Numbered from the stretch's first letter, positions 2,881-60,318 are shown. The stretch is 64,000 bases of DNA from a bacterium (GCA_018672055.1 JABHGM010000001.1:672977-736976), one strand, 5' to 3'. Numbers and translations are program-made. The notes: generated by a model from the sequence alone, not told the origin.

Positions 2881-2886
2881 AAGTTT

Positions 2887-3744: not shown

Positions 3745-3745
3745 A

Positions 3746-32663: not shown

Positions 32664-33641
32664 ATGAGTGATAAAATAGGTAAAAACATAGTAGTAACAG
32701 GTGGTGCAGGCTTTATTGGTTTCCACTTATCTAAGAGATTATTAGAACTAGGTCATAAAGTGACTATTATTGATAATTTAAGTGATTATTATAATACTAA
32801 GCTTAAAAATGATCGTTTAGCTGAAATCACTGAGAATCCAAACATAACAATACATGAAATAGACATATCTAAACCTCAAGAACTAAATGATATATTTAAA
32901 AATAATAATTTTGATTTAGTGTATCATATAGCAGCTCAACCTGGAGTTAGATATTCATTTGAAAATCCAGAAGTATATTTAACTACTAATATTGAAGGTA
33001 CAAATAATATATTAGAGTTGATGGTAAAGTATAAGATAAAAAATATTATATTTGCTTCTTCGTCATCAGTATATGGTAATTCAGATAAAGAATCATTTAG
33101 TGAAGATGATAACACGAGTAATCCTGTCTCACTTTACGCTGTTACTAAATTAACTTGTGAAAGCTTATTAAAATATTATCATCATCAATATAATTTAAAT
33201 GTAATTGCTTTTAGATTCTTCACAGTTTATGGTCCATGGGGTAGACCAGATATGGCACCCTTCCTATTTACAGAAAAAATCTCTAAAGGAAAAGAAATAG
33301 ATGTGTACAATAATGGCAAGCATCAACGTGACTTTACATATATAGATGACATAATAGAAGGTAATATAAAAGCATTGGATGTAATTAAAGATGGAATGTT
33401 TGAAATAATTAATTTAGGCAATTCTAAATCAATTGAACTAGAATACTTTATTTCAGTGATAGAAAAAGAATTAAATCAAACAGCAAAAAAGAATTATCTA
33501 CCTATGCAACCCGGAGATGTTGTAAAAACGTCAGCTGATATTAGTAAAGCTAAAGAGTTACTTAATTGGCAACCAACAACTTCAATAGAAGTAGGTATGA
33601 ATAAATTTATTAACTGGTATAAAGATTATTTTAAAATTTAA
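32664..33641 (+). CDS. NAD-dependent nucleotide-sugar epimerase, UDP-glucuronate 4-epimerase-like (SDR)
   Basis: [22 protein letters not shown]...[17 protein letters not shown]-terminus and YAVTK catalytic YxxxK closely resemble the UDP-GlcA 4-epimerase (Cap1J/LpsL) subgroup. Confidence 0.6.
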
Positions 33642-33652
33642 ATAGTATAAAT

Positions 33653-34684
33653 ATGAAAAAAGCATTAATAACCGGTATCACCGGACAAGATGGAAGTTAC
33701 TTAGCAGAATTCCTATTAAAAAAAGGTTATGAAGTATATGGTATACAACGCAAGGCTTCTACTTTTAATACAATTAGAATTAATCATATATATGATGATA
33801 ATCCTGAAGTAAAAAACTTTCACACAATATATGGTGATTTAACAGATGGTAGTAATTTAAGTAGAACTATAGAAAAAATAAGTCCAGATGAAATATATAA
33901 CTTAGGAGCACAAACTCATGTTCAAGTTAGTTTTCAAATTCCAGTCTATACTTCTAACGTAGATGGCTTAGGTGTTCTTAGAATGCTTGATGCAATTAAA
34001 GAATCTGAAATTAAAACTAAATTCTATCAAGCTTCTTCATCAGAAATGTTTGGTAATAGTAAAGAGTCTCCACAGAATGAAAATACAATATTTAATCCTC
34101 GTTCACCATATGCCTGTGCTAAAGTTTTTGCACATTATTTAACAGTTAATTACAGAGAAGCATATAATCTATTTGCTTGTTCAGGTATACTATTTAACCA
34201 TGAATCACCAAGAAGAGGCGAAACATTTGTTTCAAGAAAAATAACTAGAGGTTTTGCAAGAATTAAACTAGGGTTAGATGATAAATTAATACTTGGTAAC
34301 TTAGAAGCTAAAAGAGATTGGGGTTTTGCTCCTGAATATATAGAAGCTATGTGGTTAATGTTACAACAAGATAAACCTGATGATTTTGTAATAGCTACTG
34401 GAGAAAATCACACAGTAAGAGAATTTGTGGAAAAAACAGCTAAATATTTCGATTTTGATTTAGAATGGCAAGGAACAGGAGTAAAAGAAAAAGGAATTGA
34501 TAAAAAATCAGGTAAAATAATTGTAGAAATAAGTGAATCATACTTTAGACCAGCAGAAGTTGATGAATTAATTGGTGATTATTCAAAAGCTAAAGAATTA
34601 CTTAATTGGGAACCTAAAGTTAAATTCGACGAATTAGTTAATATAATGTCAGAAGCAGATTTTAAACAACAAGATAAAAAATAA
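33653..34684 (+). CDS. gmd: GDP-mannose 4,6-dehydratase
   Basis: [28 protein letters not shown]...; catalytic YACAK; full-length Gmd (343 aa). Confidence 0.85.
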
Positions 34685-34687
34685 TTT

Positions 34688-35626
34688 ATGATTAAAGACA
34701 AAAAAATATTAGTAACTGGAGGATCAGGTTTTCTAGGTAAACGTGTTATTAAACGTTTAAAAGAAGAAGGATATAATTTCTGTAGCACTTCTTTAAGTGA
34801 AGGTGTTGATTTCAGAAATTATAATCAAACAATTGAATATTTTAAAAAAGAAAAACCTGATATAGTAATTAACTGTGCAACATTTATAGGTGGTATAAAA
34901 TTTGGAATGGATCATAGAGGTGAAATATATTATAATAATACATTAATATCAAATAATTTAATTGAAGCTTCTAGAGAACTTAAAGTAGAAAGATTCATTA
35001 ACCCAATTTCAAACTGTTCATACCCAAATGTTGGAGATAGAAAATTTAAAGAAGAAGACTGGTGGCAAGGAGAACTAGATGAATCAGTTATGGTTTATGG
35101 AATGTGTAGAAAAATGAGCTGGGTTCAAGCTTACGCATATCATAAACAATATGGTATGAATTTTATTAACTTAATTATTCCAAATATGTATGGACCTGGT
35201 GATCATTTTGAAGAAGTAAGATCACATGCTCTCGGTGCTCTAGTCATGAAAATTGTTAAAGCTAAAGAAGAAAACTTACCAGAAGTAACTGTTTGGGGTA
35301 CAGGTAGCCCAGTAAGAGAATGGTTATATATAGATGATACAGTAGAAATATTATTAGAGTCACTTGAAATAGAACCATTTATTGAAGCAATAAACATTGG
35401 TGTAGGAAAAGGCGTTACTATAAAAGAATTAGCAGAAACTATAAAAGAACAAGTAGGTTATGAGGGTAATTTAACTTTTGATACAGAAAAACCAGATGGT
35501 GCTCCTTATAAAGCGATGGATATAACAAAGAGTAAAAAAATATTTAAAAATTTACCTAATACAGAATTAGATCAAGGAATTAAACAAACAATTGAATATT
35601 ATTACAAAGAAGTATTAAAAAAATAA
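34688..35626 (+). CDS. fcl: GDP-L-fucose synthase (GDP-4-keto-6-deoxymannose 3,5-epimerase/4-reductase)
   Basis: Fcl block ...PNMYGPGDHFEE...VTVWGTGSPVREWLYIDD...INIGVGKGVTIKELAETIKEQVGYEGNLTFDTEKPDGAP... aligns with E. coli Fcl (...PTNLYGPHDNF...VVVWGSGTPMREFLHVDD...VGYKGRVVFDASKPDGTP...). It lies directly after gmd. Confidence 0.8.
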   Translation: MIKDKKILVTGGSGFLGKRVIKRLKEEGYNFCSTSLSEGVDFRNYNQTIEYFKKEKPDIVINCATFIGGIKFGMDHRGEIYYNNTLISNNLIEASRELKVERFINPISNCSYPNVGDRKFKEEDWWQGELDESVMVYGMCRKMSWVQAYAYHKQYGMNFINLIIPNMYGPGDHFEEVRSHALGALVMKIVKAKEENLPEVTVWGTGSPVREWLYIDDTVEILLESLEIEPFIEAINIGVGKGVTIKELAETIKEQVGYEGNLTFDTEKPDGAPYKAMDITKSKKIFKNLPNTELDQGIKQTIEYYYKEVLKK

Positions 35627-35669: not shown

Positions 35670-36923
35670 TTAATTCAATAACTTTTTATATATCTCAACT
35701 TGTCTATCAATTAAAATATTTGAGTCATAATTTTTTAATACATGGTCTCTGCCAAAATTACTAAACTCTGGCCATAAGTCTGAGCTATTTATATAAGTAA
35801 GAATTTTTTCAGCTAATTCTTTGTAATTATTCTCATCAACTAAAAAACCATTCTTACCATCAATGATCTGGTCAGGTAAACCACTATGTCTTGTAGTAAT
35901 TACCGGTAAACCTGTAGCTAAAGCTTGTGATATTACAGTATTCATAAATTATTCCATGTCCCCATCCTTAGCAGTTTTTGAAGGTTGAATAAACAAATGC
36001 ATATCCTTAAAATATTTAATTACATTCTCTAATTTCATATAACCTTTAAATTCTACTAAATTTTTTAAATTTAACTTACTATATAAGTCATATATTTCGT
36101 CTTTTAATGGACCATCCCCTATTATATAACATTTAAATTTTTTATTTGTTTTTACTTTAACAATAGCTAAAGCTTTTAATAAATCATCAAATCCTTTTTT
36201 CTCAACAAAATTACCTACAGAAATCAAATTAATCTGTTCATCATTTTCTAAACTTCTTTTATTAAAAGGATATGACTCAACATCAATACTAACTGGTAAA
36301 ACTTCTACCCTATCTTCAGGAAAACCATACTCCACTACCCTTTCTTTCATATTATTTGACATAACTAAAAAGTTGGAAGATTGTTTTATTAATTTATCAT
36401 AATAGCTACTTGGTTTTTCTCTAAATGATCTAGATACATCATACCCATATAAAGTAGTAACTATCTTTTGTTTTAAATTAAGAATTTCTTTAACTATTAA
36501 ATATCTATTTGCTACTGGTCCAAAATGACAATGAACTAAATCAAACTTTTTATTAATAAATGGAGTTACCCAAAAAATTAATTTAAGTGAAGAAGCGTTT
36601 CTACCATACTTTTTAAAATTAAATAAATCTATTAAGATTATTGGTTTAGTAAATAATATTAATATAATTTTAGGAATAGCAAGTAGGATCCTAAGTAAAT
36701 AATTTTTTGGCATTTCTAAATAATTAATAATATCTTTCATATTATATTCCTGAAATCTATCTGAAATTATATCATTACCTTTAAAATCTTTTCTAAATGA
36801 AAATACTTCTACTTCTATTCCCCTATCTTTTAAATCAGCAATTTGATTGATAATAAAAGTTTCGGAAACTCTGGGAAAGTTTCCGACTACAAAAGCAACT
36901 TTAATTTTATTATCATTTTTCAT
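35670..36923 (-). pseudogene. GT4 glycosyltransferase interrupted by a single in-frame TAA (35949-35951) at the conserved EGFG motif
   Basis: ORFs 35949..36923 and 35670..35945 are in the same frame, separated by TAA-TTT-ATG, and read ...FIQPSKTAKDGDME*FMNTVISQALATGLPVITT... This reconstitutes the GT4 E(G)F...E...G.PV signature, with the stop at the Gly position. Confidence 0.55.
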
Positions 36924-38016
36924 AAAATTCTCTAATCTTCAAACATACATATTTAATTTCTTTAACAGTAAGCTCAGGACTAAGTGGTAAAGAAAGAATC
37001 TCTTTTGAAATTTTACTAACTACAGGAAGATCACTATTTTTTAATTTTAAAAAATTATAACATTTTTGTAAATGAATTGGCTTAGGATAATGAATACCAG
37101 TTTGAATATTGTGCTTTGTTAAATATTGTTGTAACTTATCCCTTTTACTAGTTTGTATTACAAATAAATGCCAAACTCTTTTAATCTTTTTACTAGAACT
37201 AAGTGGTAATTTAATTGGCAAACCTTTTAATTCATTCAAATATATTTTAGCTAATTGATTTCTCTCTTTATTCAAACGAGCAAGTTTAGTTAAACCAAAA
37301 CTTAATAATCCGGCCTGTACTTCATCAAGACGTGAATTATATCCTTCATATACAGAATTATTACGCCCAACTTCGCCATAATGCCTAAGTGCCCTTAATT
37401 TATCACCTAGAGCCTTATTATTCGTTACAACAGCACCAGCATCACCAAAGGTACCTAATATTTTAGTAGGATAAAAGCTAAAACAACTAATATCACCAAA
37501 TGTACCCAGAAATTTATTATTATACTTAGCACCAAAAGATTGAGCCACATCTTCAATTAAAAATAAGCCATACTTTTTAGCTAAGCTTTTTATTTTTAAA
37601 ATTTCTGCAGGATAACCATATAAATGGACCAGAACAATAGCTTTAGTTTTCTTAGTAATTTTTTTTTCAATTAACTCAACATCTATATTGTATGTATCTA
37701 CGTTTATATCAATAAGTATAGGCATAGCACCTGTTTGTCTAATTGCACTAATGGTAGGTACTGCAGTATGAGATGTAGTAATTACTTCATCTTTCTCAGT
37801 TATACCTAATGCTTTTAATGCTAAAAATAATGCATCAGTACCAGAACTTACACCTATAACATGCTTAATATTGAATAATTTACTTAACTTTTTTTCTAAT
37901 TTATCTAATTCTTTACCTAAAATAAAATTACCACTACTGAATATTCTATCCATTACTTTAATAATTTCTTTCTTATTTAATCTATATCTTTTTTTAAAGT
38001 TATTAAATAATATCAT
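36913..38016 (-). CDS. DegT/DnrJ/EryC1/StrS-family PLP-dependent sugar aminotransferase
   Basis: ...HVIGVSSGTDALFLALKALGI...; full-length match to sugar 3-/4-aminotransferases (FdtB/QdtB-like by context). Confidence 0.8.
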   Translation of the reverse strand: MILFNNFKKRYRLNKKEIIKVMDRIFSSGNFILGKELDKLEKKLSKLFNIKHVIGVSSGTDALFLALKALGITEKDEVITTSHTAVPTISAIRQTGAMPILIDINVDTYNIDVELIEKKITKKTKAIVLVHLYGYPAEILKIKSLAKKYGLFLIEDVAQSFGAKYNNKFLGTFGDISCFSFYPTKILGTFGDAGAVVTNNKALGDKLRALRHYGEVGRNNSVYEGYNSRLDEVQAGLLSFGLTKLARLNKERNQLAKIYLNELKGLPIKLPLSSSKKIKRVWHLFVIQTSKRDKLQQYLTKHNIQTGIHYPKPIHLQKCYNFLKLKNSDLPVVSKISKEILSLPLSPELTVKEIKYVCLKIREFYEK

Positions 38017-38017
38017 G

Positions 38018-38467
38018 TTAATTATTTATTGATTTAATAAAATCCTCATAATTTCTAAAATAATCAGCTTCATCAAAGTAATCACTAGCTAGTACCAATA
38101 TTACACAATCTTTTGAAAAACTTGTCATCTCATGCCATAATTTTGGTCCTAGCCTAATACCAATATATGGATCATTCATTACTATTTCTTGTTTATTTGT
38201 ACCATCATCCAATTTAATCTTAAATGAACCATTTACACAAAAAATATACTGCTCTAACTTCTTATGAGCGTGTTTACCTCTAACTGATCTAAATCTATGT
38301 AAGTTATTTATAAAATAAACTCTTTTTATATCAAAAGGAACACTTTTCATAGATTCAGCTATTACTAAGTTACCATCAGGTTCATCATTAAAAAATTGTA
38401 ATTTAATTACACCCGAATTCTTTACTAAAATTTCAATATCTTTTTTCATACTATTTTTTACCAACAA
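38018..38467 (-). CDS. FdtA/QdtA (WxcM)-like cupin, predicted dTDP-4-keto-6-deoxyhexose 3,4-ketoisomerase
   Basis: RGKHAHKKLEQYIFCVNGSFKIKLDDG core (RGxHAHK motif of FdtA/QdtA); 149 aa. Confidence 0.7.
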   Translation of the reverse strand: MLVKNSMKKDIEILVKNSGVIKLQFFNDEPDGNLVIAESMKSVPFDIKRVYFINNLHRFRSVRGKHAHKKLEQYIFCVNGSFKIKLDDGTNKQEIVMNDPYIGIRLGPKLWHEMTSFSKDCVILVLASDYFDEADYFRNYEDFIKSINN

Positions 38468-39230
38468 TTAATATTTCAAAGCCAAATTTTTTAGAAAAAT
38501 ATCTATTTGTAAATTTATCTAAAAACTTAGTTATTCTATTAAACGCTTTACCTAGCAATTTAAATATACTATGTATATATTTTAATCTAAAAATTCCATA
38601 AGCAAAGTAAAAACCATCTTCATTAATTATTTCTAAACCAGCTTCATTATATAATCTACGTAATTCTTTCTTACTATATGATTTTTCATAACCGTAAGTA
38701 TATTCTTTTCTATGAAATAACTTATACAAAGTATGTGGTAAGTTAAATAAATTAACACCTGATACTATAATAACTCCACCTGGCTTTAAAATCTTTGTCA
38801 TTTCTTTAATAGCTTTCAAATCATTAGGTAAATGTTGTATAACTACATCGCTTATTATTAAATCAAAATAATCTTCTCTAAACTCTAAATTATATACATC
38901 TGCTTTTTTAACTTCAACATTAGTTAAATTCAATTCATTTTTTAATCTTTCGATAAATTTAACTGATGAATCAACAATATCAGTAATAGTAACTTGAGCA
39001 TCTGGAAATTCTTGAGCTATTTTTAAACCATATCTTCCAGTTCCACCACCAATTTCAATAACCCTATTAAAATTATTAGGAAAATGTTTTTTAAATACAG
39101 GATATCCTTCAATAAATAAGCGACTACTAAATATCATTTTAGGAGTAGTCTTGTCTTCTTGTTGCCATACTTTACTCCAAATATTATTTACTTGATCTTG
39201 TTTTATATGTTTTTCTTTAACCATAACCAT
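38451..39230 (-). CDS. Class I SAM-dependent methyltransferase
   Basis: Motif I VIEIGGGTGRYGLKIA, motif post-I ITDIV. Confidence 0.75.
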   Translation of the reverse strand: MVMVKEKHIKQDQVNNIWSKVWQQEDKTTPKMIFSSRLFIEGYPVFKKHFPNNFNRVIEIGGGTGRYGLKIAQEFPDAQVTITDIVDSSVKFIERLKNELNLTNVEVKKADVYNLEFREDYFDLIISDVVIQHLPNDLKAIKEMTKILKPGGVIIVSGVNLFNLPHTLYKLFHRKEYTYGYEKSYSKKELRRLYNEAGLEIINEDGFYFAYGIFRLKYIHSIFKLLGKAFNRITKFLDKFTNRYFSKKFGFEILIVGKK

Positions 39231-40702
39231 GATTCATAATATTTTCTACCAAATACTTTATCTAATAAATAAATTGAAATAAAATATATTATAATACCAA
39301 AAATAATATATAATACTAAAATAAAAGGATTAGTTATTAAAAATATACTTTTTAAAGTATGCATTATATTAAACATAATTAAACTTGCAATTATAGGTAA
39401 ACTAATTATATTAAAAAACCCCTTAAATCCTAATTTAATTGTATGTTTAATCTTAAAAAATAAAATTGACTGTGAAATAAGTAAACTACTAGCTACAGAT
39501 AAAGCAATACCAACAACTCCAAACATCTTGGCCAGTGGCACTATTAACGAGAACATTATAATTGATTGAATAGTTAAAATATATGTATTAATTTTAGGTT
39601 TTCCTATACCTAGAAATAATGGATTAACAATAAGTTCAAATGATCTAAGAATAGCTATTATTAATACAATGTTTAATATAGGAATCATAGCTGTCCACTT
39701 AGATCCATAAACTATATAAACAATTTCATTATTTAAAGTAAATATACCTATTAAAGCGGGAATAATGAATGCATAAAGAACTCTAAATAATCTTATAAAT
39801 GAACTTTTTAATAACTCAAGATCATTTTGAATTTTGGAAAAGAATGGAAATAAAACATTACCCATTACTTTAGATATTTCAGTTGATGGTAAAGTACCAA
39901 GTGATAAAGCTAAAGAATATAAACCAAGATCATATGTAGTAAGCAACTTACCTATCATAATAGCATCACCTTGTCTTGTGATAAAAGTAATAATTCCAGC
40001 AAGACCTATCCATTTGCCAAATTTAAATAATTGCTTAGTAACTTCTAAATTAAATTTAAATCTAGGTCTGTAAGAATGAAAAACATATGATAATATAATA
40101 TCTGCAAATTTACCAAAAGCAACACCTATTAATAATGCCCAAGGACTTCTTAAATAGAAAGCTGCTATTATTACAGCACTTATTTCAATAAATACAGCTG
40201 ATATATCATAGAAAAACTTTTTATTAAATCTCAACTCTTTATTTAATAAAATAACACCAATATTCTGGAATCCTTCAAAAAATACTATAATAGCTAAAAC
40301 CTTTATAAAAGGTATAACATTTATATTATTAAAAAATCCAGCTGCCAAATTAGGAGCTATAAAAAATAGAACTAAAGCAACTAAAGTATTACGTAAAATA
40401 TTTACAGTCCATGCTCCATTTAAATACTTACTATTTGATTCTTTATGATGAACTAATGCAGTATTAAAACCATGTTGAAATATTGTTCCGACAAATGTCA
40501 TTGTTAAACTTGCTAAACCGAATAAACCAAAATCTTCAGGAAATAAAAGTCTAGCCAAAATTATAGTTTTAATAAGTTGTAAACTTTTAATTAATACTCG
40601 GCTTAATAATACTAAAATACTGCCACGTGCAACCTGTTGACCAGTGTCATCAGTAGTTTTCCAAATATTAAAAAACCTATTTTTTAAATCTTTAAGCTTC
40701 AT
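39203..40702 (-). CDS. Wzx-type polysaccharide flippase (MOP superfamily)
   Basis: 499 aa with ~14 TM helices, the polysaccharide biosynthesis protein family architecture. Confidence 0.7.
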   Translation of the reverse strand: MKLKDLKNRFFNIWKTTDDTGQQVARGSILVLLSRVLIKSLQLIKTIILARLLFPEDFGLFGLASLTMTFVGTIFQHGFNTALVHHKESNSKYLNGAWTVNILRNTLVALVLFFIAPNLAAGFFNNINVIPFIKVLAIIVFFEGFQNIGVILLNKELRFNKKFFYDISAVFIEISAVIIAAFYLRSPWALLIGVAFGKFADIILSYVFHSYRPRFKFNLEVTKQLFKFGKWIGLAGIITFITRQGDAIMIGKLLTTYDLGLYSLALSLGTLPSTEISKVMGNVLFPFFSKIQNDLELLKSSFIRLFRVLYAFIIPALIGIFTLNNEIVYIVYGSKWTAMIPILNIVLIIAILRSFELIVNPLFLGIGKPKINTYILTIQSIIMFSLIVPLAKMFGVVGIALSVASSLLISQSILFFKIKHTIKLGFKGFFNIISLPIIASLIMFNIMHTLKSIFLITNPFILVLYIIFGIIIYFISIYLLDKVFGRKYYESWLWLKKNI

Positions 40703-41738
40703 TTTTTAATTGTTTTCTTTCATTTATAAATTCTATTCTGTTTTCTGGACAAATACTACACATACGATTTTGTCCACGATTAGTATTGATTTGATTTCTT
40801 AATTTATTATACCTACTACCTTTCCAGATTTTTTTAAGTGATGTTTCAAATACATTACCCATAATATATTGAGAAAATAAATCATAACAACAAGGTACTA
40901 CATCACCATTAACATTAATTGCTGCTACACCTAATACTTGATCACAATGATTTGTAATTTTACCCTTTAATATAAACTGATCATTTTCATCTTTCTCATA
41001 ACGACTAAACTTTTGATCATTTGGTAAAAATTTCTTAGCCATCAGCTGCATATCTGGTGTATCATAAAGAAATATAGTTTTAGCAGCAAAGATATCTACA
41101 CCTAATTCCTTAGCAAATTCTTCCATTCTTTCTTTTTGATGCTCATTATGTTTCATTACTAAAAACTGTAATTCAATTTTAGGTAACTTTGAATTAGCTT
41201 TTTTCTTTGTAGCCATCATCATTTTAATATTATTTACTTCATTTTCGTAATTAGCACCTACTCTATACTGTTCTAATGTTTCTTGGTCTAAACCATCTAA
41301 ACTAATTATTAAATGTTTTAATTTACTTTCAATTATTCCATCACATAACTCTTGTTTATCTAATAATTGAGCATTAGTACTCATCTTTACATTAATTCCA
41401 GCATCAGTTGCATACTTTGCCATTTTAAACACCTCATCATTTAATAATGGTTCACCATAGTTAAATAAAAACATCTTATTAACATAACCTCTTACTTGAT
41501 CAATAATATACTTAAATCTATCAAAACTCATTAGTTCTGGTTTTCTATTTAGTCTACCTGAACCCGTTGGACATAAAGGACATCTTAAATTACAATAATT
41601 TACTGGTTCAACAAGTAAAGTAAAAGGAAGAGGCGGTACCATATCTTTAACTCCAAGTTTTCTTAGTAACTTAAACCAGAATAAATCAAATTTACCTTGT
41701 ATTAATAACTTAATAGCATTCTTTATTTTATTTATCAT
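40692..41738 (-). CDS. Radical SAM enzyme with C-terminal SPASM-like Cys cluster
   Basis: CNLRCPLCP (Cx3Cx2C) radical-SAM cluster near the N-terminus. C-terminal cysteines (...HCDQV...VPCCYD...CSICP) are consistent with an auxiliary-cluster SPASM/twitch domain. Confidence 0.7.
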   Translation of the reverse strand: MINKIKNAIKLLIQGKFDLFWFKLLRKLGVKDMVPPLPFTLLVEPVNYCNLRCPLCPTGSGRLNRKPELMSFDRFKYIIDQVRGYVNKMFLFNYGEPLLNDEVFKMAKYATDAGINVKMSTNAQLLDKQELCDGIIESKLKHLIISLDGLDQETLEQYRVGANYENEVNNIKMMMATKKKANSKLPKIELQFLVMKHNEHQKERMEEFAKELGVDIFAAKTIFLYDTPDMQLMAKKFLPNDQKFSRYEKDENDQFILKGKITNHCDQVLGVAAINVNGDVVPCCYDLFSQYIMGNVFETSLKKIWKGSRYNKLRNQINTNRGQNRMCSICPENRIEFINERKQLKNEA

Positions 41739-42643
41739 ATTAATATATCATTTATTTTTAATTTATTAGTTGACTCATAGTCATTTATTATTAGTAATCC
41801 ATCTTTTAACTTAATAACTGGTTTATCATCTATTACTTTTACTACTTCACCTATTTTACCATCTATATCCTCTTCATGTATTAAAGCTTTCCAAATAGTA
41901 ACTTTATTCTCTTTATTATAGCAGAAAGCGCCAGGAAATGGTTTAGTAACACCTCTAATTAAATTATATATTTCTCTTAACGTATTATTAAAATCAATTT
42001 TACCATCAGAAGGAGTTCGTTTAGGATAGTATGTTGACTTACCAGACTGCTTAGTTAATTTAATATTATTCTCTTTATATGCAGTTAATAGTTCTTTTAA
42101 TTGAACTTTAGCAGTTTCAATAGATTTTTCTTGTAGATTTGATATATCATCTAACTCTTCAATATTAAAATCCATAATATTAAATATAGGGCCTTCATCA
42201 GCACCAGTACCATATTTAAATAAATGATTATGAATTACTTTTCTATCTTCGATAATAGACCAATTAAGTGGTGACCTACCTTTACCTTCTGGTAAATACT
42301 TAGAACTACCATGAAAACCAAATACACCTGACTCAAATTTACTTAATATATTATCTGGTATTAAACGTTGCCAACCATATGATATTCCTATACTAAATTC
42401 ATTTGAATTAAAAAATTCTAAATCCTTTTTATCTTTTAGCTCATAATCATTTAATGCCAAATATTCAATATTATATTTAGAAGCTATACCTCTTAAATTC
42501 TGAAAACCTGATATATGATGCTTTTTAACACACTCTTCATCTAAAGAAACTAATAGATCTATTTTATAGCCTTCACTAATTAAATAATCAATTACTTTCG
42601 AAGAAGTACTCTTAACACCAAAAAATGTAATATTATATTTCAT
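41735..42643 (-). CDS. Formyltransferase-family protein, predicted sugar N-formyltransferase
   Basis: FHGSSKYLPEGKGRSPLNWSII matches the N10-formyl-THF transferase catalytic motif (cf. ArnA/Fmt HGSLLPxxRGxAPxNW). It sits beside FdtA-like and DegT genes. Confidence 0.65.
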   Translation of the reverse strand: MKYNITFFGVKSTSSKVIDYLISEGYKIDLLVSLDEECVKKHHISGFQNLRGIASKYNIEYLALNDYELKDKKDLEFFNSNEFSIGISYGWQRLIPDNILSKFESGVFGFHGSSKYLPEGKGRSPLNWSIIEDRKVIHNHLFKYGTGADEGPIFNIMDFNIEELDDISNLQEKSIETAKVQLKELLTAYKENNIKLTKQSGKSTYYPKRTPSDGKIDFNNTLREIYNLIRGVTKPFPGAFCYNKENKVTIWKALIHEEDIDGKIGEVVKVIDDKPVIKLKDGLLIINDYESTNKLKINDILI

Positions 42644-42645
42644 AA

Positions 42646-43407
42646 CTATTTATATAACTTTCTGAAACTTTGACAATCATGTTTCATAGTTTCAATAAAC
42701 TCTGTACTCTTTTGTTTAATTAAAATATCAAAAGCATCTAAATTTTCCTTATACCCTTCATTTGACCATTCATATGCGTGTGTCAATAACTGAGCTTTTT
42801 TAATATCATCATTAATCATATCTAGTGGATAGCCATAAGGCCATCTTTTTTCTGGTAACTTATTTGATTCAGCTAAATACAAAACATCTAATTTTTTATC
42901 TGCATCATCACCATTATATGTAAAGAACTCACTATTATATGGATTAATTATCCCTTCAATCCTAATATCTTTCTCTAAGACAGCTACTGGTGGTCTATGA
43001 TATGAAAAACGATCAATCTTCATGCCTAAACCATTTTCCATAACTTCAATTTCATTTTTAATTATTTTAGCGTAATCATTACCAGTTTTACTTTCTAAAT
43101 AAATATGTAAACCAATCTTATGACCTAATTTATGAATTTCATTTATTAAATCATGATTACTCTTTGAGAATATATTATATGCATTATTTCTAAGTTGAAC
43201 AAAGTAACTTGTTGAAATTCCCATTTCATTTGCTTCAAACTTTGCAAATTCATAGGCTCTTTCTATTGAAAACTCAACATCATGTCTTAAAACTAAAAAC
43301 TTTTCAGTTTCTTTATTAATCTCTGAATAATCCATTAAAGGTAAATACTTAGTAAGCCCTTCAATTATATTTTTATATTCTCCATACGAGAATGATTCTT
43401 TAAGCAT
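42646..43407 (-). CDS. Hypothetical protein (possible divergent deacetylase/hydrolase-like)
   Basis: 253 aa; the His/Asp-containing segments LRHDVEF and HKIGLH weakly recall metal-dependent hydrolases, but no firm family assignment. Confidence 0.35.
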   Translation of the reverse strand: MLKESFSYGEYKNIIEGLTKYLPLMDYSEINKETEKFLVLRHDVEFSIERAYEFAKFEANEMGISTSYFVQLRNNAYNIFSKSNHDLINEIHKLGHKIGLHIYLESKTGNDYAKIIKNEIEVMENGLGMKIDRFSYHRPPVAVLEKDIRIEGIINPYNSEFFTYNGDDADKKLDVLYLAESNKLPEKRWPYGYPLDMINDDIKKAQLLTHAYEWSNEGYKENLDAFDILIKQKSTEFIETMKHDCQSFRKLYK

Positions 43408-45276: not shown

Positions 45277-46304
45277 AACTCATTTATTAATTTATTTACT
45301 ATTATCTTTGATAAACACTTTTCTTTAAACAATTTATATCCATTATCAGCTATATCTCCTCTTAACTTACTATCATTCCTAAGTAATAGTATTTTTTCTA
45401 CTAAATCTTTACTATCTGCCTGATTACATAATAATATATTTTCTTTATCTTTAAATAATTCATTAATTGCAGGAGTATTAGCAGTAATAACTGCCTTTTG
45501 CATAGCTATTGCTTCATATACTTTATTTGGTATTACTCTAGTTGTTTTTTGACCCTTTCCAAATATACCTAAACAAATATCAGATTGACTAATATACTTT
45601 GTTAAATCGGAATATGATTGCTTCGAAATAAAATTTATATTATTTACATCTAACTTACTAGCTAGTTTAATTATTTTATCATGTTCTTGCCCAGAACCAA
45701 CTAAATTAAATTTAATATCCTTATATTCTTCTAAAGCTTTAGCTGCTTCAATAATATATTCTATTCCTTGCAATGGAATATATTTACCATGGAAATGAAT
45801 TACAAAACTATTACTTTGTTCTTTAACTTTTGGCAAAAAAACAGATTCATCACTACCAACTAATACTTTAATATATTTATTTCCTCCAAAAGTCGTTTTA
45901 AAATATTTAATATGCTCATTTGTATCAAGTAATACTTTATTTGCTAACTTAATACTTAACCAATCAAGCAACCAATAATACTTAGATTTAAAACTATTTC
46001 TAGAAACTAACTTCTTATCATTAACCCAAGAATCATATAATGAATAAAAAGCATCCCAAATAATTGGTTTATTACTTATTAACTTAGCAATAGGTACCAT
46101 AAATTGATTATCTGAATAACCAACTATTAATTGATCGTATTTATTTTCAACATCTTTATGTTTATTAATTAACTCTTTAATACTCTTAGCATTAACAAAA
46201 AGTACTTCTATATTATTCTCCTTAAAACCTTTTATTAAAACTCTATTCCTAGAATAATTAGGATCAAAATCTCCAAAATAACATATTGTATTTATACTAC
46301 TCAT
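45273..46304 (-). CDS. Glycosyltransferase, group 1-like (GT-B)
   Basis: GT-B fold pattern; 343 aa; overlapping boundaries with both neighbours. Confidence 0.6.
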   Translation of the reverse strand: MSSINTICYFGDFDPNYSRNRVLIKGFKENNIEVLFVNAKSIKELINKHKDVENKYDQLIVGYSDNQFMVPIAKLISNKPIIWDAFYSLYDSWVNDKKLVSRNSFKSKYYWLLDWLSIKLANKVLLDTNEHIKYFKTTFGGNKYIKVLVGSDESVFLPKVKEQSNSFVIHFHGKYIPLQGIEYIIEAAKALEEYKDIKFNLVGSGQEHDKIIKLASKLDVNNINFISKQSYSDLTKYISQSDICLGIFGKGQKTTRVIPNKVYEAIAMQKAVITANTPAINELFKDKENILLCNQADSKDLVEKILLLRNDSKLRGDIADNGYKLFKEKCLSKIIVNKLINEL

Positions 46305-47743
46305 TAATTTGCTTCTTTCTTTTTAATAAAAAACGATAGTAAAGCTTTAAAACCAGATGATAATATCTTTAAATCATCAAGTGATCTTATGCTAAGTAAT
46401 TTTTTAAAAATATACTTAGGTCTAAAGTAGAATCTTCGATACATGTGCTTATACAACTTCTTAATTTCATCAGCTGTTAAATTTTCTAATCTCATAACTG
46501 GCTTAGCTAAAGTGTAATCATCCCATTCATAGGTTAAAATTAAATCTTTAGACTTTGCCCAATCAAACATATCAGTTCCAGGAAAAGGTGTAGTAATATT
46601 TACAACAATTAAATCTGGATCCATTTTAATTGCAAACTTAGTATTTTTCTTTAAAATTTCCATATTATCTCCAGGGTTACCTACCATAAATGCTAAACGA
46701 CATTCTATACCAACTTGCTTAGTCCATTTAACTGCATTTTTAACTTGATCAATATTTATTTTCTTATTTATATTTCTTAAAACGCCTTCATCAACATTTT
46801 CTACACCATACATAATCTGATGGCAGCCAGAATCTTTCATCTTCTGAAGCATTTCTTTATCAATAAAATCTACTCTAGCAAAACAAGTCCATGATATATC
46901 AATATTATTTTCAAGTAATAGATCACATAACTTAACTACATTCTCTTTAAAAACAGTAAATGTATCATCATAGAAAAGTATTTGCTTTATGCCCCAATTA
47001 TCTATTAAATACTTAATCTCTTTAAATATAACCTCAGCTGATTTAAAAACTAATATATTACCTAAAGTCTTACTACAAAAAGTACATCTTCCAGGACAGC
47101 CACGTGAAGTCATCATGCTCATTGCTGGTAACCTTTTATATGAGCCTTTAGCTGGCTTATACTTTAGAACTGGTAATAAATCATATGCAGGAATTGGTAA
47201 TTCATCTAGCTTCATTATTCTATTTCTTGGCTTATTCTTAATTACTTCACCATCTTTCTTGTAAACAATGCCATCTATTTCTGAAAGTTCTTTTCCTTTA
47301 ACTATTTCAGTAACAGTTAATTCACCTTCACCAATTACTACAATATCAACACTTTCTTTAGCAATAACTTCATCAGTTACAAAAGTAGCATGAACTCCAC
47401 CAAACATTACTACAGCATCAGGATAATATTTTTTACATATCTCAGAAATTAAATATGCCTTTTTTATTGTACAAGTCATAGCAGTTAATCCAATATATTT
47501 AATTGACTCATACTTATTAACAAATTCTTTCTCAAAATACTCAGAAAATGATTCAACAGAAGGAGAATATACATTACAATCAACTATCTTAACTGAAAGA
47601 TCTTGCTCTCTTAAATAACCAGCAATAAAAGCTAATCCAAGAGGTGGAAAATTTGAATTAATTTCCTTCCATATATTTTCCTTATCTTCGTAAAATATGG
47701 GAGGAGATATTAATAAGCAATCAAGTTGTTTCTTCTCATTCAT
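46304..47743 (-). CDS. B12-binding domain radical SAM enzyme (class B rSAM)
   Basis: N-terminal cobalamin-binding-like Rossmann region (LDCLLISPP...PPLGLAFIAGYL) followed by MTSRGCPGRCTFC (Cx3? non-canonical CxxxxCxxC spacing of class B rSAM) and a TIM-barrel region. Confidence 0.75.
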   Translation of the reverse strand: MNEKKQLDCLLISPPIFYEDKENIWKEINSNFPPLGLAFIAGYLREQDLSVKIVDCNVYSPSVESFSEYFEKEFVNKYESIKYIGLTAMTCTIKKAYLISEICKKYYPDAVVMFGGVHATFVTDEVIAKESVDIVVIGEGELTVTEIVKGKELSEIDGIVYKKDGEVIKNKPRNRIMKLDELPIPAYDLLPVLKYKPAKGSYKRLPAMSMMTSRGCPGRCTFCSKTLGNILVFKSAEVIFKEIKYLIDNWGIKQILFYDDTFTVFKENVVKLCDLLLENNIDISWTCFARVDFIDKEMLQKMKDSGCHQIMYGVENVDEGVLRNINKKINIDQVKNAVKWTKQVGIECRLAFMVGNPGDNMEILKKNTKFAIKMDPDLIVVNITTPFPGTDMFDWAKSKDLILTYEWDDYTLAKPVMRLENLTADEIKKLYKHMYRRFYFRPKYIFKKLLSIRSLDDLKILSSGFKALLSFFIKKKEAN

Positions 47744-48441
47744 TATTTAAATAAATTATATTTTATAATATGCCAAAATGCAGCAATACCATCTTTCCAA
47801 TTGATCTTTTTACCCTCTTCATATGTTCTACCATAATATGAGATACCAACTTCATAAATTCTGAACTTACCTTTAGAAACAAGAGCTGTTATTTGAGGTT
47901 CAATACCAAATTTCTGAGCACTTAACCTATCTTTTAAATAATCAATTGCTTGCCTATTAAATGCCTTATAGCAAGTTTCCATATCAGTTAAAGTTAAATT
48001 AGTAAGCATATTAGAAAATGTAGTCAGCACTCTATTCCCTACTGAATGCCAGAAATACAAGACACGATGTGGTTTACTACTAATAAAACGTGAACCATAT
48101 ACAACATCAGCTTTATTTTCTAAAATTGGACTTAAAACATCAATGTATTCTTTAGGATCATATTCTAAATCAGCATCTTGAATTATTAAGATATCCCCTG
48201 TTGCTTCTTTAAAACCCAGAGTAATTGCAGAACCTTTACCACCATTTTCATCTTTCAGTATAACTTTATACTGATCCGTAAGCATTTTTAATATATCTCG
48301 AGTACCATCAGTTGATTTATCATCAATAATTATTATTTCTTTTTCAATATCTGGAAGTTCAACAGACTCTACTAATTTAAGTAATTTATTAATAGTATTT
48401 TTTTCATTATATACAGGAATTATAATTGATAGTTTTTTCAT
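47743..48441 (-). CDS. GT2 polyprenyl-phosphate glycosyltransferase (Dpm1/ArnC/GtrB-like)
   Basis: LSIIIPVYNEKNTINKLLKLV...IIIIDDKSTDGTRDIL...IIQDADLEYDP is a short (232 aa) Dpm1-type GT2. Confidence 0.8.
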   Translation of the reverse strand: MKKLSIIIPVYNEKNTINKLLKLVESVELPDIEKEIIIIDDKSTDGTRDILKMLTDQYKVILKDENGGKGSAITLGFKEATGDILIIQDADLEYDPKEYIDVLSPILENKADVVYGSRFISSKPHRVLYFWHSVGNRVLTTFSNMLTNLTLTDMETCYKAFNRQAIDYLKDRLSAQKFGIEPQITALVSKGKFRIYEVGISYYGRTYEEGKKINWKDGIAAFWHIIKYNLFK

Positions 48442-52878: not shown

Positions 52879-53541
52879 TTATTTTTTTAATAATATATTA
52901 AAATACAAGCCAAAACTCTTTGGTAAAAACTTAGGCATTGTATTTATTTTTTCTAATTCAAATTCTTTACTTGCAAACTTTAAAAATTCTTTATAATTAG
53001 TAACGTGATGATCATTTATTTCATTAAAACCTATTGTTACAAATAATTTCTCCATAAATTTATCTACTCTTGGCATACCAACTAATAATTCACCACCTGG
53101 TTTTAATATTCGATGCAATTCTTTTAAAATTTGATCAGGTTCTTTAATATGTTCAAATACAGAAAAAGCTACAATTAAATTAAAACTATTTGATTCTAAA
53201 TTAAGTGTAGTAATATCTTCTTGATACAGTTGAGCATTAATATTTAATTTATCTAAACTTTCTTTAACTAGCTTAGTATCTGCATCTAAATCAACAGCAG
53301 TTAAATTATTTGAAATTGAATTAAGCGTTGGTAATAAAAGTCCAGAACCAGAACCAAACTCTAATATTGAATCATATTCTTTATTCAATAAATCCAAACC
53401 CATTTGAATACGCTTAACATATAATTTACCAACAAGTGGTCTATAATAATAATCTAATGGATCACTAGGCCCATTAACTTTAAAAATTCCTGATTTTGGT
53501 AATATAAATTTTATTTTTGACATACAAACATTATTTTCCAA
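52879..53541 (-). CDS. Class I SAM-dependent methyltransferase
   Basis: ILEFGSGSGLLLPTL motif I; 220 aa. Confidence 0.7.
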   Translation of the reverse strand: MENNVCMSKIKFILPKSGIFKVNGPSDPLDYYYRPLVGKLYVKRIQMGLDLLNKEYDSILEFGSGSGLLLPTLNSISNNLTAVDLDADTKLVKESLDKLNINAQLYQEDITTLNLESNSFNLIVAFSVFEHIKEPDQILKELHRILKPGGELLVGMPRVDKFMEKLFVTIGFNEINDHHVTNYKEFLKFASKEFELEKINTMPKFLPKSFGLYFNILLKK

Positions 53542-59182: not shown

Positions 59183-59287
59183 TATTTTAGATAATTTATC
59201 AAATTATTTTTATATTTTATCCCCATTTATTATACATTGACTTTTAATTATATATAATTATAATACATTATGTAATATATTAAACAT

Positions 59288-59512
59288 ATGACTAAAAATC
59301 ATAATAAATACACTACTATCTCTATACCTGTTCAGCTTAATGAAAAGCTGAAAGATCTAATAAAGGATACTGGTTTTAATTCAGCATCTTCTTTTGTTAC
59401 TTATGTCTTAAGACAAATTGTTTCAGAAGGAGTTAATTCAAAAGAAGGCTTTACTAAATCAGATGAACAAAAGGTAAAAGATAGATTAAAAAGTCTAGGC
59501 TACTTAAAATAG
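59288..59512 (+). CDS. Small ribbon-helix-helix (CopG/Arc-like) protein
   Basis: TISIPVQLNEKLKDLIKDTGFNSASSFVTYVLRQIV fits a beta-strand, helix, helix RHH DNA-binding fold; 74 aa, 2 nt before cysD. Confidence 0.4.
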   Translation: MTKNHNKYTTISIPVQLNEKLKDLIKDTGFNSASSFVTYVLRQIVSEGVNSKEGFTKSDEQKVKDRLKSLGYLK

Positions 59513-59513
59513 T

Positions 59514-60317: not shown

Positions 60318-60318
60318 T

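Follow-up and report, generated by a model that had tools for sequence, protein, structure and literature searches.

A putative two-cassette surface-glycan operon that combines 3-amino-3,6-dideoxyhexose genes with an ArnA-like formyltransferase homologue

The operon described here lies in a 64-kb window (the whole stretch of DNA analysed, 64,000 nucleotides) from a small-genome, uncultured bacterium of 26% G+C. It runs from 43407 to 35670 on the minus strand, inside a 30-kb surface-glycan locus, and is tightly packed, its ORFs overlapping or nearly abutting; all the ORFs that a preliminary description had placed in this sub-cluster are present, on that strand and at the same coordinates. Comparison with related loci suggests that it is composed of two independently inherited cassettes. 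Cassette A comprises a Wzx flippase, a methyltransferase, an FdtA isomerase, a DegT aminotransferase (DegT1) and a split GT4 glycosyltransferase, and cassette B a CE4-like deacetylase homologue, a formyltransferase homologue and a SPASM radical-SAM enzyme.

The FdtA gene (38018-38467, minus strand) encodes a cupin of the FdtA/QdtA family of NDP-4-keto-6-deoxyhexose 3,4-ketoisomerases, with 150.7 bits on the Pfam FdtA model (cut-off 23 bits) and PDB matches to FdtA (2pa7, 3.5e-38) and QdtA (2e-34). Its RGKHAHK motif (38261-38281) aligns with the catalytic His pair of FdtA 2pa7, and the pair is intact. Translation more likely starts at the ATG at 38449, which gives 143 aa and is the start annotated in the public contig, than at the TTG at 38467. 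The adjacent DegT1 (36913-38016, minus strand; Pfam DegT_DnrJ_EryC1, 359.7 bits) belongs with the PLP-dependent NDP-3-keto-6-deoxyhexose C-3 aminotransferases of the QdtB/FdtB/WlaRG type. The solved structures nearest to it are those of C-3 sugar aminotransferases (7b0d, 3.7e-105; QdtB, 1.5e-92; WlaRG, DesV and WbpE), the Schiff-base Lys lies in SFYPTK (37462-37479), and orthologues with 52-57% identity follow FdtA in the related loci L091, L110 and L111. Both genes had been recognized in the preliminary description, and since the two assignments are firm, the 3-amino part of the 3-formamido-3,6-dideoxyhexose branch that it predicted is well supported; formylation of that sugar is not established by the data presented below.

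The class I SAM methyltransferase of cassette A (259 aa, 38451-39230, minus strand; Pfam Methyltransf_31/25/11) ends in a TAG stop, with a single base between it and the FdtA ATG. The two proteins are fused in L091 (a 406-aa ORF); of 73 family members, at least 9 carry the fusion, and in the unfused relatives L111 and L108 the methyltransferase lies immediately upstream of FdtA. By these sequence comparisons it is the conserved, sometimes fused, partner of FdtA. Its structural model (pLDDT 91) retrieved generic methyltransferases with Foldseek, the sugar O-methyltransferases AtmM and RebM being near the top and TylM1/DesVI outside the best 50 matches; N- and O-methylation of a sugar are both candidate activities. 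The first gene of the cassette encodes a Wzx/MOP-family flippase (39203-40702, minus strand; Pfam Polysacc_synt_3, 249.5 bits), for which L091, L111 and L112 have orthologues of 43-47% identity at the corresponding place. The last is a GT4 glycosyltransferase (35670-36923, minus strand; Pfam) present as two ORFs of 324 aa (35949-36923) and 91 aa (35670-35945), with an in-frame TAA between them in the window. The split recurs in L091, L110, L111 and L112 (315-324 aa plus 91-94 aa; GT4 identity 54-59%), and the relative frames of the two ORFs differ among relatives. This GT4 is presumably the transferase for the amino sugar.

In cassette B, the formyltransferase homologue (302 aa, 41735-42643, minus strand) has a C-terminal OB-like domain that matches Pfam Formyl_trans_C with 63.4 bits, while Pfam Formyl_trans_N gave no match at E<=0.001. 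On the NCBIfam models it scores 135.7 bits for ArnA, 122.4 for PRK06988 and 81.7 for fmt, each under its own cut-off. Among structures it is closest to the ArnA N-domain (about 3e-23), followed by Fmt (6e-13), WbkC (3e-7), QdtF (5e-5) and FdtF (3e-4); aligned directly with the ArnA N-domain, it shows 30% identity (E 2.5e-27). The preliminary description had located this gene correctly but set it two genes from FdtA, where three genes intervene. It had also credited it with the catalytic formyltransferase motif, of which His111 and Asp149 are retained; the catalytic Asn, found in all characterised formyltransferases, is replaced by Gly109 in the motif GFHGSSKYLPEGKGRSPLNW (GFHG, 42308-42319). 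Gly109 (the ArnA Asn102 column), His111 and Asp149 are invariant in the 121 of 121 family members aligned. A bona fide fmt, an alternative that the preliminary description had named, is rejected (81.7 bits against an equivalog cut-off of 201.5) despite the C-terminal domain, which ArnA also has. By sequence, the protein is ArnA-like and neither fmt nor FdtF/QdtF/WlaRD-like, with formyl transfer by this Gly-for-Asn enzyme as its putative activity.

Directly upstream, a 253-aa protein (42646-43407, minus strand) has no Pfam or NCBIfam match. Its family alignment contains the invariant motifs RHDVE (43273-43287), GxH and FSxHRP, and the family profile gave weak matches to chitin deacetylases in the PDB (2iw0, 0.0044). 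With its AlphaFold model (pLDDT 92.6), the best 25 Foldseek matches in the PDB were all of the deacetylase superfamily (E from 1.9e-5, TM 0.3-0.5): 22 were CE4/NodB proteins, including ArnD (8t0j), and the others ChbG and PuuE allantoinase. We regard it as a probable divergent CE4/NodB-fold (polysaccharide deacetylase/ArnD-like) protein, an assignment from predicted fold at modest TM-scores of 0.3-0.5. It adjoins the formyltransferase in seven related loci (L002, L009, L042, L074, L084, L088 and L112) and is its conserved upstream partner. The third member of cassette B, 348 aa long, is a SPASM-domain radical-SAM enzyme (40692-41738, minus strand; Pfam Radical_SAM and SPASM), with CxxxCxxC at 41571-41594; its ORF shares 4 nt with the end of the formyltransferase gene and 11 nt with the beginning of Wzx. 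The preliminary description had rightly listed it, with the methyltransferase and Wzx, in the sub-cluster. Its NCBIfam matches are all under cut-offs, and its nearest solved relatives, weak ones, are sugar-active (BtrN, 7e-9; BlsE, 5e-8; DesII, 6e-4). It is missing from the FdtA-cassette relatives L091, L110 and L111, and a 49%-identical orthologue directly follows the formyltransferase in L112; it travels with the formyltransferase cassette.

Other genes of the locus have to be considered as well. A convergent trio on the plus strand (32664-35626; NCBIfam and PDB matches) encodes a UDP-glucuronate-4-epimerase-like SDR (32664-33641; matches to 5u4q and the B. cereus UDP-GlcA 4-epimerase), whose motif is ASSSSVYG and not the TDE of dehydratases, a Gmd (33653-34684; 540 bits, cut-off 415), which is the sole 4,6-dehydratase in the window, and an Fcl-like reductase/epimerase (34688-35626; 226 bits, under the cut-off of 500). 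A second aminotransferase, DegT2 (54256-55362, minus strand; Pfam DegT, 342 bits), lies 11.6 kb from the formyltransferase, flanked by two methyltransferases of its own. Its best solved relatives are perosamine synthetases (3bn1/3dr4/3dr7, 6e-67); the LegC and PseC models of NCBIfam also score, all matches being under cut-offs, so its substrate is not certain. It is plausible that Gmd and DegT2 form a route to GDP-4-amino-4,6-dideoxymannose, an alternative formyl acceptor. Further on the minus strand, an ArnC-like GT2 (47743-48441; 27% identity, E 4e-12) and two PMT_2/PMT-type GT-C transferases (48438-49793 and 49790-51385; Pfam) might possibly serve a polyprenyl-phosphate sugar route like that of ArnC/ArnT. 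In L112, a 45%-identical GT2 and PMT_2 pair follows the split GT4.

The two cassettes are found separately in other genomes. Cassette A occurs without the formyltransferase in L091/L092, L110 and L111 (43-68% identity), where the formyltransferase slot is occupied by a carbamoyltransferase (L111) or methyltransferases (L091, L110). The formyltransferase family was sampled by tblastn in 80 genome loci, and in none of them did FdtA lie beside it. The family is usually accompanied by a deacetylase-like protein and TviB/TviC-like enzymes: a TviB-like dehydrogenase was found in 68 loci, an SDR in 74 and a CE4-like protein (the 253-aa family or DUF2334) in 53. Around the five closest homologues, FdtA was not adjacent to the formyltransferase in four; in three of these contexts no aminotransferase was visible, the 253-aa protein being directly upstream in two (L084, L088) and a PIG-L deacetylase nearby in the third (L086). 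The fifth context, L112, has the rest of cassette A and no FdtA, in the order 253-aa protein, formyltransferase, radical-SAM enzyme, Wzx, methyltransferase, with a C-methyltransferase in the would-be FdtA place. In these comparisons, cassette B recurs without FdtA. In the window as in L112, it immediately precedes Wzx, methyltransferase, aminotransferase and GT4.

Regarding the nucleotide carrier, the preliminary description had correctly reported a Gmd and no RmlA or RmlB in the 64-kb window, and had considered a GDP-linked 3-formamido sugar. FdtA would then act on the GDP-4-keto-6-deoxymannose of Gmd, leading to a GDP-3-amino (and 3-formamido) 3,6-dideoxyhexose of the mycosamine type. Besides the missing RmlA and RmlB, the position of Gmd, less than 1 kb past cassette A, in the place that rmlB-rmlA take in L111, speaks for this; a GDP-specific 3,4-ketoisomerase has yet to be identified (PMC8944477), so there is no comparison enzyme. 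However, GDP-mannose pyrophosphorylase is also absent from the window, and since the supply genes of neither carrier are complete there, their absence does not discriminate between carriers. Most long FdtA loci have no rml genes nearby (L089, L091/L092, L094, L102, L103, L106, L107 and L109), so their lack in the window is not unusual. In L111, the closest syntenic relative (FdtA 61% and DegT 52% identical), rmlB-rmlA directly follow cassette A, and its RmlB is 44% identical to that of E. coli and has the TDE motif; rmlA and/or rmlB adjoin FdtA of 56-65% identity in four more loci (L097-L099 and L101), with the full RmlA-FdtA-DegT-RmlB order in L098. This argues for a dTDP-linked and not a GDP-linked donor. 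Moreover, Gmd is convergent to the operon, the neighbouring Fcl-like gene and the Per-like DegT2 account for it fully, and L102, the one further FdtA locus in which a Gmd lies within 10 kb, does not form an operon. The GDP-linked product is therefore very improbable. Judging from these gene neighbourhoods, the amino-sugar donor is almost certainly dTDP-linked, and the operon very probably yields an ordinary thymidine-linked 3-amino-3,6-dideoxy sugar.

Which amine is formylated is a different matter. Because the formyltransferase belongs to a separate, uncharacterised cassette, a 3-formamido sugar is just one candidate product among several; the candidate acceptors are the 3-amino sugar, perosamine and a de-N-acetylated hexosamine. 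We rank the hexosamine first, at somewhat short of an even chance; against it, the window encodes no TviB-like NDP-HexNAc 6-dehydrogenase, unlike most loci of the formyltransferase family, and the CE4 assignment comes from a predicted fold. The sugar of cassette A follows as a tentative second candidate, in the scheme of the preliminary description with a dTDP carrier: FdtA and DegT1 would make dTDP-Fuc3N or dTDP-Qui3N, the formyltransferase would convert it into dTDP-Fuc3NFo or dTDP-Qui3NFo, GT4 would install it and the methyltransferase would O-methylate it, as the likeness of its model to AtmM and RebM allows. All these genes share one co-directional, overlapping operon, no other N-acyltransferase was found within the 30-kb locus, and L112 repeats the formyltransferase block beside Wzx, methyltransferase, aminotransferase and GT4. 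With other group-transfer enzymes filling its place in relatives, the variable slot upstream of Wzx would fit an exchangeable N-cap for the cassette-A amine. Nevertheless, the two cassettes occur apart in the contexts described above, QdtF and FdtF are remote relatives compared with ArnA, the catalytic Asn is a Gly, and the CE4-like partner would have no role. GDP-perosamine, made by Gmd and DegT2 and formylated to GDP-N-formylperosamine as by WbkC, seems a doubtful third. Brucella has an established gmd/per/wbkC pathway (PMC5981137), the Gmd of the window exceeds its equivalog cut-off, DegT2 is closest to perosamine synthetases among solved structures, and WbkC matches the formyltransferase better than FdtF or QdtF; but DegT2 is distant, has its own methyltransferases and an uncertain substrate, and no association with Gmd or Per was seen across the formyltransferase-family loci examined.

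From family memberships, synteny, gene fusions and co-occurrence, we infer the carrier, every substrate and the succession of steps as follows. RmlA and RmlB, presumably encoded outside the window, would supply cassette A with dTDP-4-keto-6-deoxyglucose, which FdtA would isomerise to the 3-keto sugar and DegT1 would aminate to dTDP-3-amino-3,6-dideoxyhexose; the methyltransferase would methylate the 3-amino sugar, GT4 would add it to a lipid-linked glycan and Wzx would flip the glycan. Cassette B would be a self-contained unit handling formyl groups on sugar amines, with the formyltransferase placing the formyl. Its CE4-like partner may de-N-acetylate a HexNAc-type sugar to give the amine (an acetyl-to-formyl swap) or, like ArnD in the Ara4N pathway, strip the formyl at a later stage. 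Taken as a whole, this combination of a dTDP-3-amino sugar with a separate formyl-handling unit is, in our view, about evenly balanced between right and wrong.

FdtA/FdtB of Aneurinibacillus thermoaerophilus, QdtA/QdtB of Thermoanaerobacterium and WlaRB/WlaRG of Campylobacter jejuni belong to dTDP-3-amino-3,6-dideoxyhexose pathways and present the same isomerase-then-aminotransferase order as the operon, for which Fuc3N or Qui3N are the candidate products. In contrast to them, the operon has neither an LbH N-acetyltransferase (FdtC/QdtC) nor an FdtF/QdtF/WlaRD-type formyltransferase, rmlA and rmlB are not linked, and the conserved third partner is the class I methyltransferase, which some relatives carry fused to FdtA. 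These fusions follow the logic of the WxcM/FdtD acetyltransferase-isomerase (PDB 4mzu), in which an FdtA domain is joined to a post-transamination enzyme, but with an N-terminal SAM methyltransferase instead of the LbH acetyltransferase; in the window the two are separate ORFs. As in the WbkC/Gmd/Per system of Brucella N-formylperosamine, a Gmd, a perosamine-synthase-like aminotransferase and a formyltransferase homologue share one glycan locus, although here the three genes are spread over 21 kb and the formyltransferase is remote and has an extra C-terminal domain. With Fmt it shares the two-domain architecture with Formyl_trans_C, but it lies in a glycan operon, lacks the Asn and is much closer to ArnA. 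Compared with the Arn system of Ara4N lipid A, the UDP-GlcA decarboxylase domain and Ugd are absent from the window, Gly stands for Asn102 of ArnA, all NCBIfam Arn models are under cut-offs, and the CE4-like protein has no sequence-level similarity to ArnD. Nonetheless, the formyltransferase most resembles the ArnA N-domain and shares its C-terminal subdomain, its pairing with a CE4-fold protein mirrors that of ArnA with ArnD, and the ArnC-like GT2 and PMT_2 GT-C enzymes of the locus recall ArnC and ArnT.

The surface-glycan genes form one large block at 27.6-59.2 kb, nearly all of them on the minus strand, and the G+C content is 23-30% all along the window. The ORFs on which the preliminary description was built were recovered in place by ORF calling and Pfam. 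From the upstream end, the minus strand carries a 253-aa ORF (42646-43407), a formyltransferase homologue (41735-42643), a radical-SAM enzyme with a SPASM domain (40692-41738), a Wzx/MOP flippase (39203-40702), a class I methyltransferase of 259 aa (38451-39230), an FdtA cupin (38018-38467) and a DegT/DnrJ/EryC1 aminotransferase (DegT1, 36913-38016; Pfam, 359.7 bits). Neighbouring ORFs overlap by 4 nt (ATGA), 11 nt or 28 nt, or lie 1-2 nt apart; with junctions this tight they make up one operon, including the 253-aa ORF upstream and a GT4 gene downstream. The formyltransferase, which had been placed two genes from FdtA, is separated from it by three. The operon is pieced together from two cassettes: Wzx, methyltransferase, FdtA, DegT1 and a split GT4 constitute cassette A, and the 253-aa protein, the formyltransferase and the radical-SAM enzyme constitute cassette B. 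The glycan locus is flanked by the gene of an 888-aa DUF4012 protein (27656-30322, minus strand). In addition, a second, separate glycan gene set is present at 176-7482 on the minus strand, with a GT2, a Wzy_C/O-antigen-ligase-like protein, a further GT2, a pair of GT4 genes and a flippase that is again Wzx-type. RpoA (8742-9500, minus strand) is only 252 aa long; together with a G+C of 26% and contigs no longer than 0.96 Mb, this points to a host of the candidate-phyla type with a small genome.

The 149-aa FdtA cupin falls inside the FdtA/QdtA family: it matches PF05523 with 150.7 bits against a cut-off of 23, over profile positions 2-129 of 131, and a PDB sequence search returned the solved Aneurinibacillus FdtA (2pa7, 3.5e-38) and QdtA (2e-34). 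The catalytic His pair is kept, with RGKHAHKK aligned on RGFHAHKK of 2pa7 (His49/His51 of FdtA), and the H-to-N mutant entries 2pae and 2pak deviate at exactly these two positions. The start codon is probably the ATG at 38449, as in the public contig. DegT1 begins 2 nt past the FdtA stop; its nearest solved relatives are all C-3 sugar aminotransferases, including QdtB (1.5e-92), WlaRG, DesV and WbpE, and its PLP Lys, in SFYPTK, is kept in the alignment to 7b0d. An FdtA with the His pair and an aminotransferase with C-3 relatives make a predicted 3-amino-3,6-dideoxyhexose branch well supported, and this part of the initial proposal is firm by Pfam, solved relatives and catalytic residues. The product would have either the gluco (Qui3N) or the galacto (Fuc3N) configuration.

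A six-frame scan for the GGxGTRL motif, together with tblastn using E. coli RmlA and RmlB, confirmed the reported absence of RmlA and RmlB from the 64-kb window, in which no ManC-type nucleotidyltransferase was found either. The ORF at 32664-33641, RmlB-like in Pfam, was rejected as RmlB: it reads ASSSSVYG and not STDEVYG, is 26% identical to E. coli RmlB and scores 164.9 against 365 for TIGR01181. Its nearest solved relatives are PDB 5u4q and the B. cereus UDP-GlcA 4-epimerase, with the same SSSS motif. The closest one, 5u4q, is labelled dTDP-glucose 4,6-dehydratase and carries the epimerase-type YASSSSVYG, not TDE; this label is probably an annotation error, so that similarity to 5u4q is no evidence for RmlB. 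The sole 4,6-dehydratase in the window is Gmd (33653-34684, plus strand; TIGR01472, 540.2 bits against a cut-off of 415), which is transcribed convergently and followed by an Fcl-like gene. A second DegT aminotransferase, DegT2 (54256-55362, minus strand), is closest to GDP-perosamine synthase (6e-67). With the Fcl-like gene and DegT2 present, Gmd would be fully employed without FdtA.

The metagenome scan for FdtA relatives gave 21 loci. On four short contigs, rmlA and/or rmlB directly adjoin FdtA relatives of 56-65% identity, and the complete order RmlA-FdtA-aminotransferase-RmlB is found in locus L098. In locus L111, a genuine RmlB (44% to the E. coli protein, with the VSTDEVYG motif) and an RmlA (44%) come directly after the split GT4. 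Most long FdtA loci are, like the window, without rml genes within 10 kb. From the rml-flanked relatives and the rmlB-rmlA pair behind the L111 cassette we infer dTDP-4-keto-6-deoxyglucose as the predicted substrate of FdtA. The preliminary description had raised the idea of a GDP-linked precursor from Gmd and a GDP-3-formamido sugar; FdtA would then act on GDP-4-keto-6-deoxymannose and yield a GDP-3-amino- or 3-formamido-3,6-dideoxyhexose. Since a 3,4-ketoisomerase that acts on GDP-sugars has yet to be identified (PMC8944477), this reading would be novel; if true, the FdtA homologue would be the long-sought GDP-sugar 3,4-ketoisomerase, apparently absent from mycosamine-type pathways. The rml-linked FdtA relatives, and a Gmd otherwise employed, make it highly improbable. 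L102, the sole other FdtA locus with Gmd within 10 kb, was discarded as a Gmd-FdtA operon, its FdtA being an orphan among unrelated genes.

Two relatives' loci of 30% G+C, L091 and L092, are syntenic with the window: GT4, GT4, GT2, Wzx, methyltransferase, FdtA (68% identity), aminotransferase (57%) and GT4 (56%). The slot that separates their GT2 from Wzx is occupied by two methyltransferases plus a different SPASM protein, and none of the 253-aa protein, the formyltransferase and the window radical-SAM enzyme was found in it; the SPASM protein of L091 was rejected as a homologue of the latter, with no detectable homology. In L111 the variable slot holds a carbamoyltransferase, and the order is Wzx, methyltransferase, FdtA (61%), aminotransferase (52%) and split GT4. 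L111 has the methyltransferase and FdtA unfused; in L091 and L092 a single ORF of 406 aa encodes both. Relatives of the methyltransferase make up a small family (73 matches, mostly from candidate-phyla bacteria), nine members of which are methyltransferase-FdtA fusions of about 400 aa. Such fusions occur mainly on candidate-phyla (Patescibacteria-type) metagenome contigs, examples being L091 9206-10426 and the proteins P0140, P0141, P0143, P0144, P0146, P0147, P0175, P0176 and P0196. In L110, another fusion locus, the aminotransferase and then the split GT4 are arranged as in the window. To our knowledge, neither these recurrent fusions, defining a cassette of Wzx, methyltransferase, FdtA, aminotransferase and split GT4, nor the variable slot beside it with formyl, carbamoyl or methyl transferases has been described.

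The methyltransferase was also considered as a TylM1/DesVI-type N,N-dimethyltransferase, and this was rejected for lack of specific similarity by sequence or predicted structure: neither TylM1 nor DesVI is among its 54 PDB sequence matches (E<=0.001) or in the top 50 Foldseek matches of its predicted structure. Foldseek places AtmM and RebM, both of them sugar O-methyltransferases, among its nearest folds. From the fusion to FdtA only, and by analogy with WxcM/FdtD, we infer that the methyltransferase may act after transamination. Cassette A would make and install a methylated, almost certainly dTDP-derived 3-amino-3,6-dideoxyhexose, with the methylation on N or O.

The GT4 of cassette A (35670-36923, minus strand) is divided into two ORFs of ~320 aa and ~92 aa, with an in-frame TAA between them. 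The same split is observed in L091 (11535-12772), L110 (13050-14305), L111 (12307-13564) and L112 (7797-9057). Since it is conserved in four related loci with differing relative frames, it looks like a two-polypeptide GT-B enzyme and not a recent pseudogene. An alternative genetic code was rejected as the cause, given that the stop is TAA and that the split is kept elsewhere in different relative frames.

In the formyltransferase of cassette B, Formyl_trans_C (63.4 bits) is the one significant Pfam domain; Formyl_trans_N is not detected at E<=0.001 and is weak in the homologues. By phmmer, residues 87-271 align to the ArnA N-domain (~3e-23), and the other solved relatives are Fmt (6e-13), the GDP-perosamine formyltransferase WbkC (3e-7), QdtF (5e-5) and FdtF (3e-4). 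The protein is not a bona fide fmt, a possibility that had been raised at the outset (TIGR00460, 81.7 bits against a cut-off of 201.5). Identity with the bifunctional ArnA or PRK06988 was likewise rejected, as both NCBIfam scores are below cut-off (135.7 against 777 and 122.4 against 316, respectively) and the sole nearby SDR is epimerase-type (SSSSVYG). The catalytic-region motif reads GFHGSSKYLPEGKGRSPLNW, and the folate-loop region, HGSSKYLPEGKGRSPLNW, has a two-residue insertion relative to HxSLLPxxRG..PxxW. Gly109 occupies the column of the ArnA catalytic Asn102, with His111 and Asp149 present, and the Asn-His-Asp triad of sugar N-formyltransferases (ArnA-N, WlaRD, FdtF, QdtF, WbkC, VioF) is thus incomplete by an Asn-to-Gly change. 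When the window protein and its 120 best database relatives were aligned with E. coli ArnA, this column was Gly in 121 of 121 family members and the catalytic His and Asp were invariant. The family comprises 1,524 database matches at E<=1e-10, with hosts in Komeilibacteria, Lachnospiraceae, Legionellaceae and Bacillus.

For the 253-aa protein, Pfam, NCBIfam and a single-sequence PDB search all gave no match, and its family profile gave weak chitin deacetylase matches in PDB (0.0044). Its AlphaFold model (pLDDT 92.6) has 25 top PDB fold matches that all belong to the deacetylase superfamily, at TM values of only 0.3-0.5, with CE4/NodB enzymes, ArnD among them, in the majority. The family alignment has two invariant motifs, RHDVE and GxH, as candidate counterparts of the CE4 metal-binding/catalytic motifs. 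The solved relatives of the radical-SAM enzyme are weak and sugar-active (BtrN, BlsE and DesII).

We compared 80 genome loci containing formyltransferase relatives of 42-48% identity, using tblastn with the window proteins. An SDR was present in 74 of them, usually immediately upstream, an NDP-sugar 6-dehydrogenase (TviB-like) in 68, a DUF2334/polysaccharide-deacetylase protein in 46, mostly adjoining, and the 253-aa protein in 26; one or both of these deacetylase-like proteins occur in 53. None of the 80 loci yielded FdtA, the methyltransferase, the radical-SAM enzyme or RmlA. For the dehydrogenase and the SDR of one complete Lachnospiraceae genome, the best-scoring models are those of TviB, a UDP-GlcNAc 6-dehydrogenase, and TviC, a UDP-GlcNAcA 4-epimerase. 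A module of TviB-like, TviC-like, formyltransferase and DUF2334/CE4-like genes is conserved in gut Lachnospiraceae, where the formyltransferase clade is widespread, and in their relatives (L002-L081, e.g. L054 7577-11667); it is a possible sign that their capsules contain a hexuronic acid with a 2-formamido group, or one that is transiently formylated. For the closest formyltransferase homologues (53-61% identity), the 253-aa protein is encoded directly upstream in a Komeilibacteria MAG and a Logan contig, and a Tara contig with a close homologue has a PIG-L deacetylase nearby; neither FdtA nor an aminotransferase was visible in these contigs. We know of no description of a large ArnA-like formyltransferase clade with the catalytic Asn always Gly and, almost always, a deacetylase-fold partner.

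Locus L112 contains the 253-aa protein (48%), the formyltransferase (57%), the SPASM radical-SAM enzyme (49%), Wzx (47%) and the methyltransferase (50%); a 420-aa C-methyltransferase-type protein occupies the position of FdtA, and next come a different DegT (36%), the split GT4 (59%), a GT2 (45% to window 47743-48441) and a PMT_2 GT-C enzyme. This order puts cassette B beside a Wzx-methyltransferase-aminotransferase-GT4 block in a second organism, without FdtA. Linkage of the formyltransferase to an aminotransferase cassette was seen in the window and in L112, and linkage to FdtA in 0 of the 80 other loci.

Several other genes of the glycan locus deserve mention. DegT2 overlaps a pair of methyltransferases (53511-54275 and 52879-53541), and a B12-binding radical-SAM enzyme comes next (51394-52857, minus strand); this cluster and Gmd suggest that a second branch leads to a GDP-linked, possibly methylated 4-amino-4,6-dideoxyhexose. 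Another B12-binding radical-SAM enzyme lies at 46304-47743 (minus strand). The best matches of both are HpnJ, BchE and P-/C-methyltransferase families, all below cut-off, and they may C-methylate or otherwise tailor sugars. An ArnC/DPM1-like GT2 and then two PMT/PMT_2 GT-C transferases are located at 47743-51385, and an AglJ-like GT2 at 55364-56680 (all minus strand); as a group, these enzymes resemble a route by which polyprenyl-phosphate sugars would serve glycosylation outside the cytoplasm. L112 keeps the GT2 and PMT_2 pair beside its split GT4. The stretch 57804-61524 starts, at the end of the locus, with a 206-aa P-loop protein (weak AAA_33); behind it come two sulfate adenylyltransferase genes, one CysD-like (59514-60317) and one CysN-like (60319-61524), which may supply activated sulfate for a sulfated glycan.

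With regard to the formyl acceptor, the preliminary description predicted a 3-formamido branch, in which the formyl group goes on the 3-amino sugar. The position in the operon, the L112 arrangement and the fact that no other N-acyltransferase was found in the locus speak for this acceptor, but the family-wide formyltransferase neighbourhoods disfavour it; the isomerase and aminotransferase steps stand, and formylation of their product appears doubtful. Since a deacetylase partner is often present in the family and an aminotransferase is not visible in several loci, two mechanisms fit. The formyltransferase and its deacetylase-fold partner could exchange the acetyl group of a sugar of the HexNAc(A) type for a formyl group, or they could take part in an Arn-like cycle, in which the sugar would be formylated, transferred and deformylated. 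The locus does contain Arn-like parts: one GT2 shares 27% identity with ArnC, the aminotransferases share 29-32% with ArnB, and two GT-C enzymes are of the PMT type. We tentatively propose, at less than even confidence, that the Gly-for-Asn formyltransferase and its CE4-like partner form an undescribed module of acetyl-to-formyl exchange or transient formylation for sugar amines. Our literature search gave nothing specific on deacetylase-plus-formyltransferase routes to formamido sugars. If either the exchange or the Arn-like protection and deprotection were true, some formamido or free-amino sugars could arise without a dedicated aminotransferase, and the formyltransferase/CE4 pair would help to predict surface-glycan chemistry in gut and uncultured bacteria. 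A different product, GDP-N-formylperosamine, has its precedent in gmd/per/wbkC of Brucella (PMC5981137); here we regard it as unlikely.

In relation to known systems, FdtA and its aminotransferase add one more routine example to a pathway that has been studied well. The cassette with methyltransferase and FdtA, and the formyltransferase that has Gly for Asn and a CE4-like partner, vary known kinds of system in a new way, with a chemistry that is predicted from sequence. In WxcM/FdtD an acetyltransferase is fused to the isomerase, whereas in the relatives described here it is a methyltransferase that is fused to FdtA.
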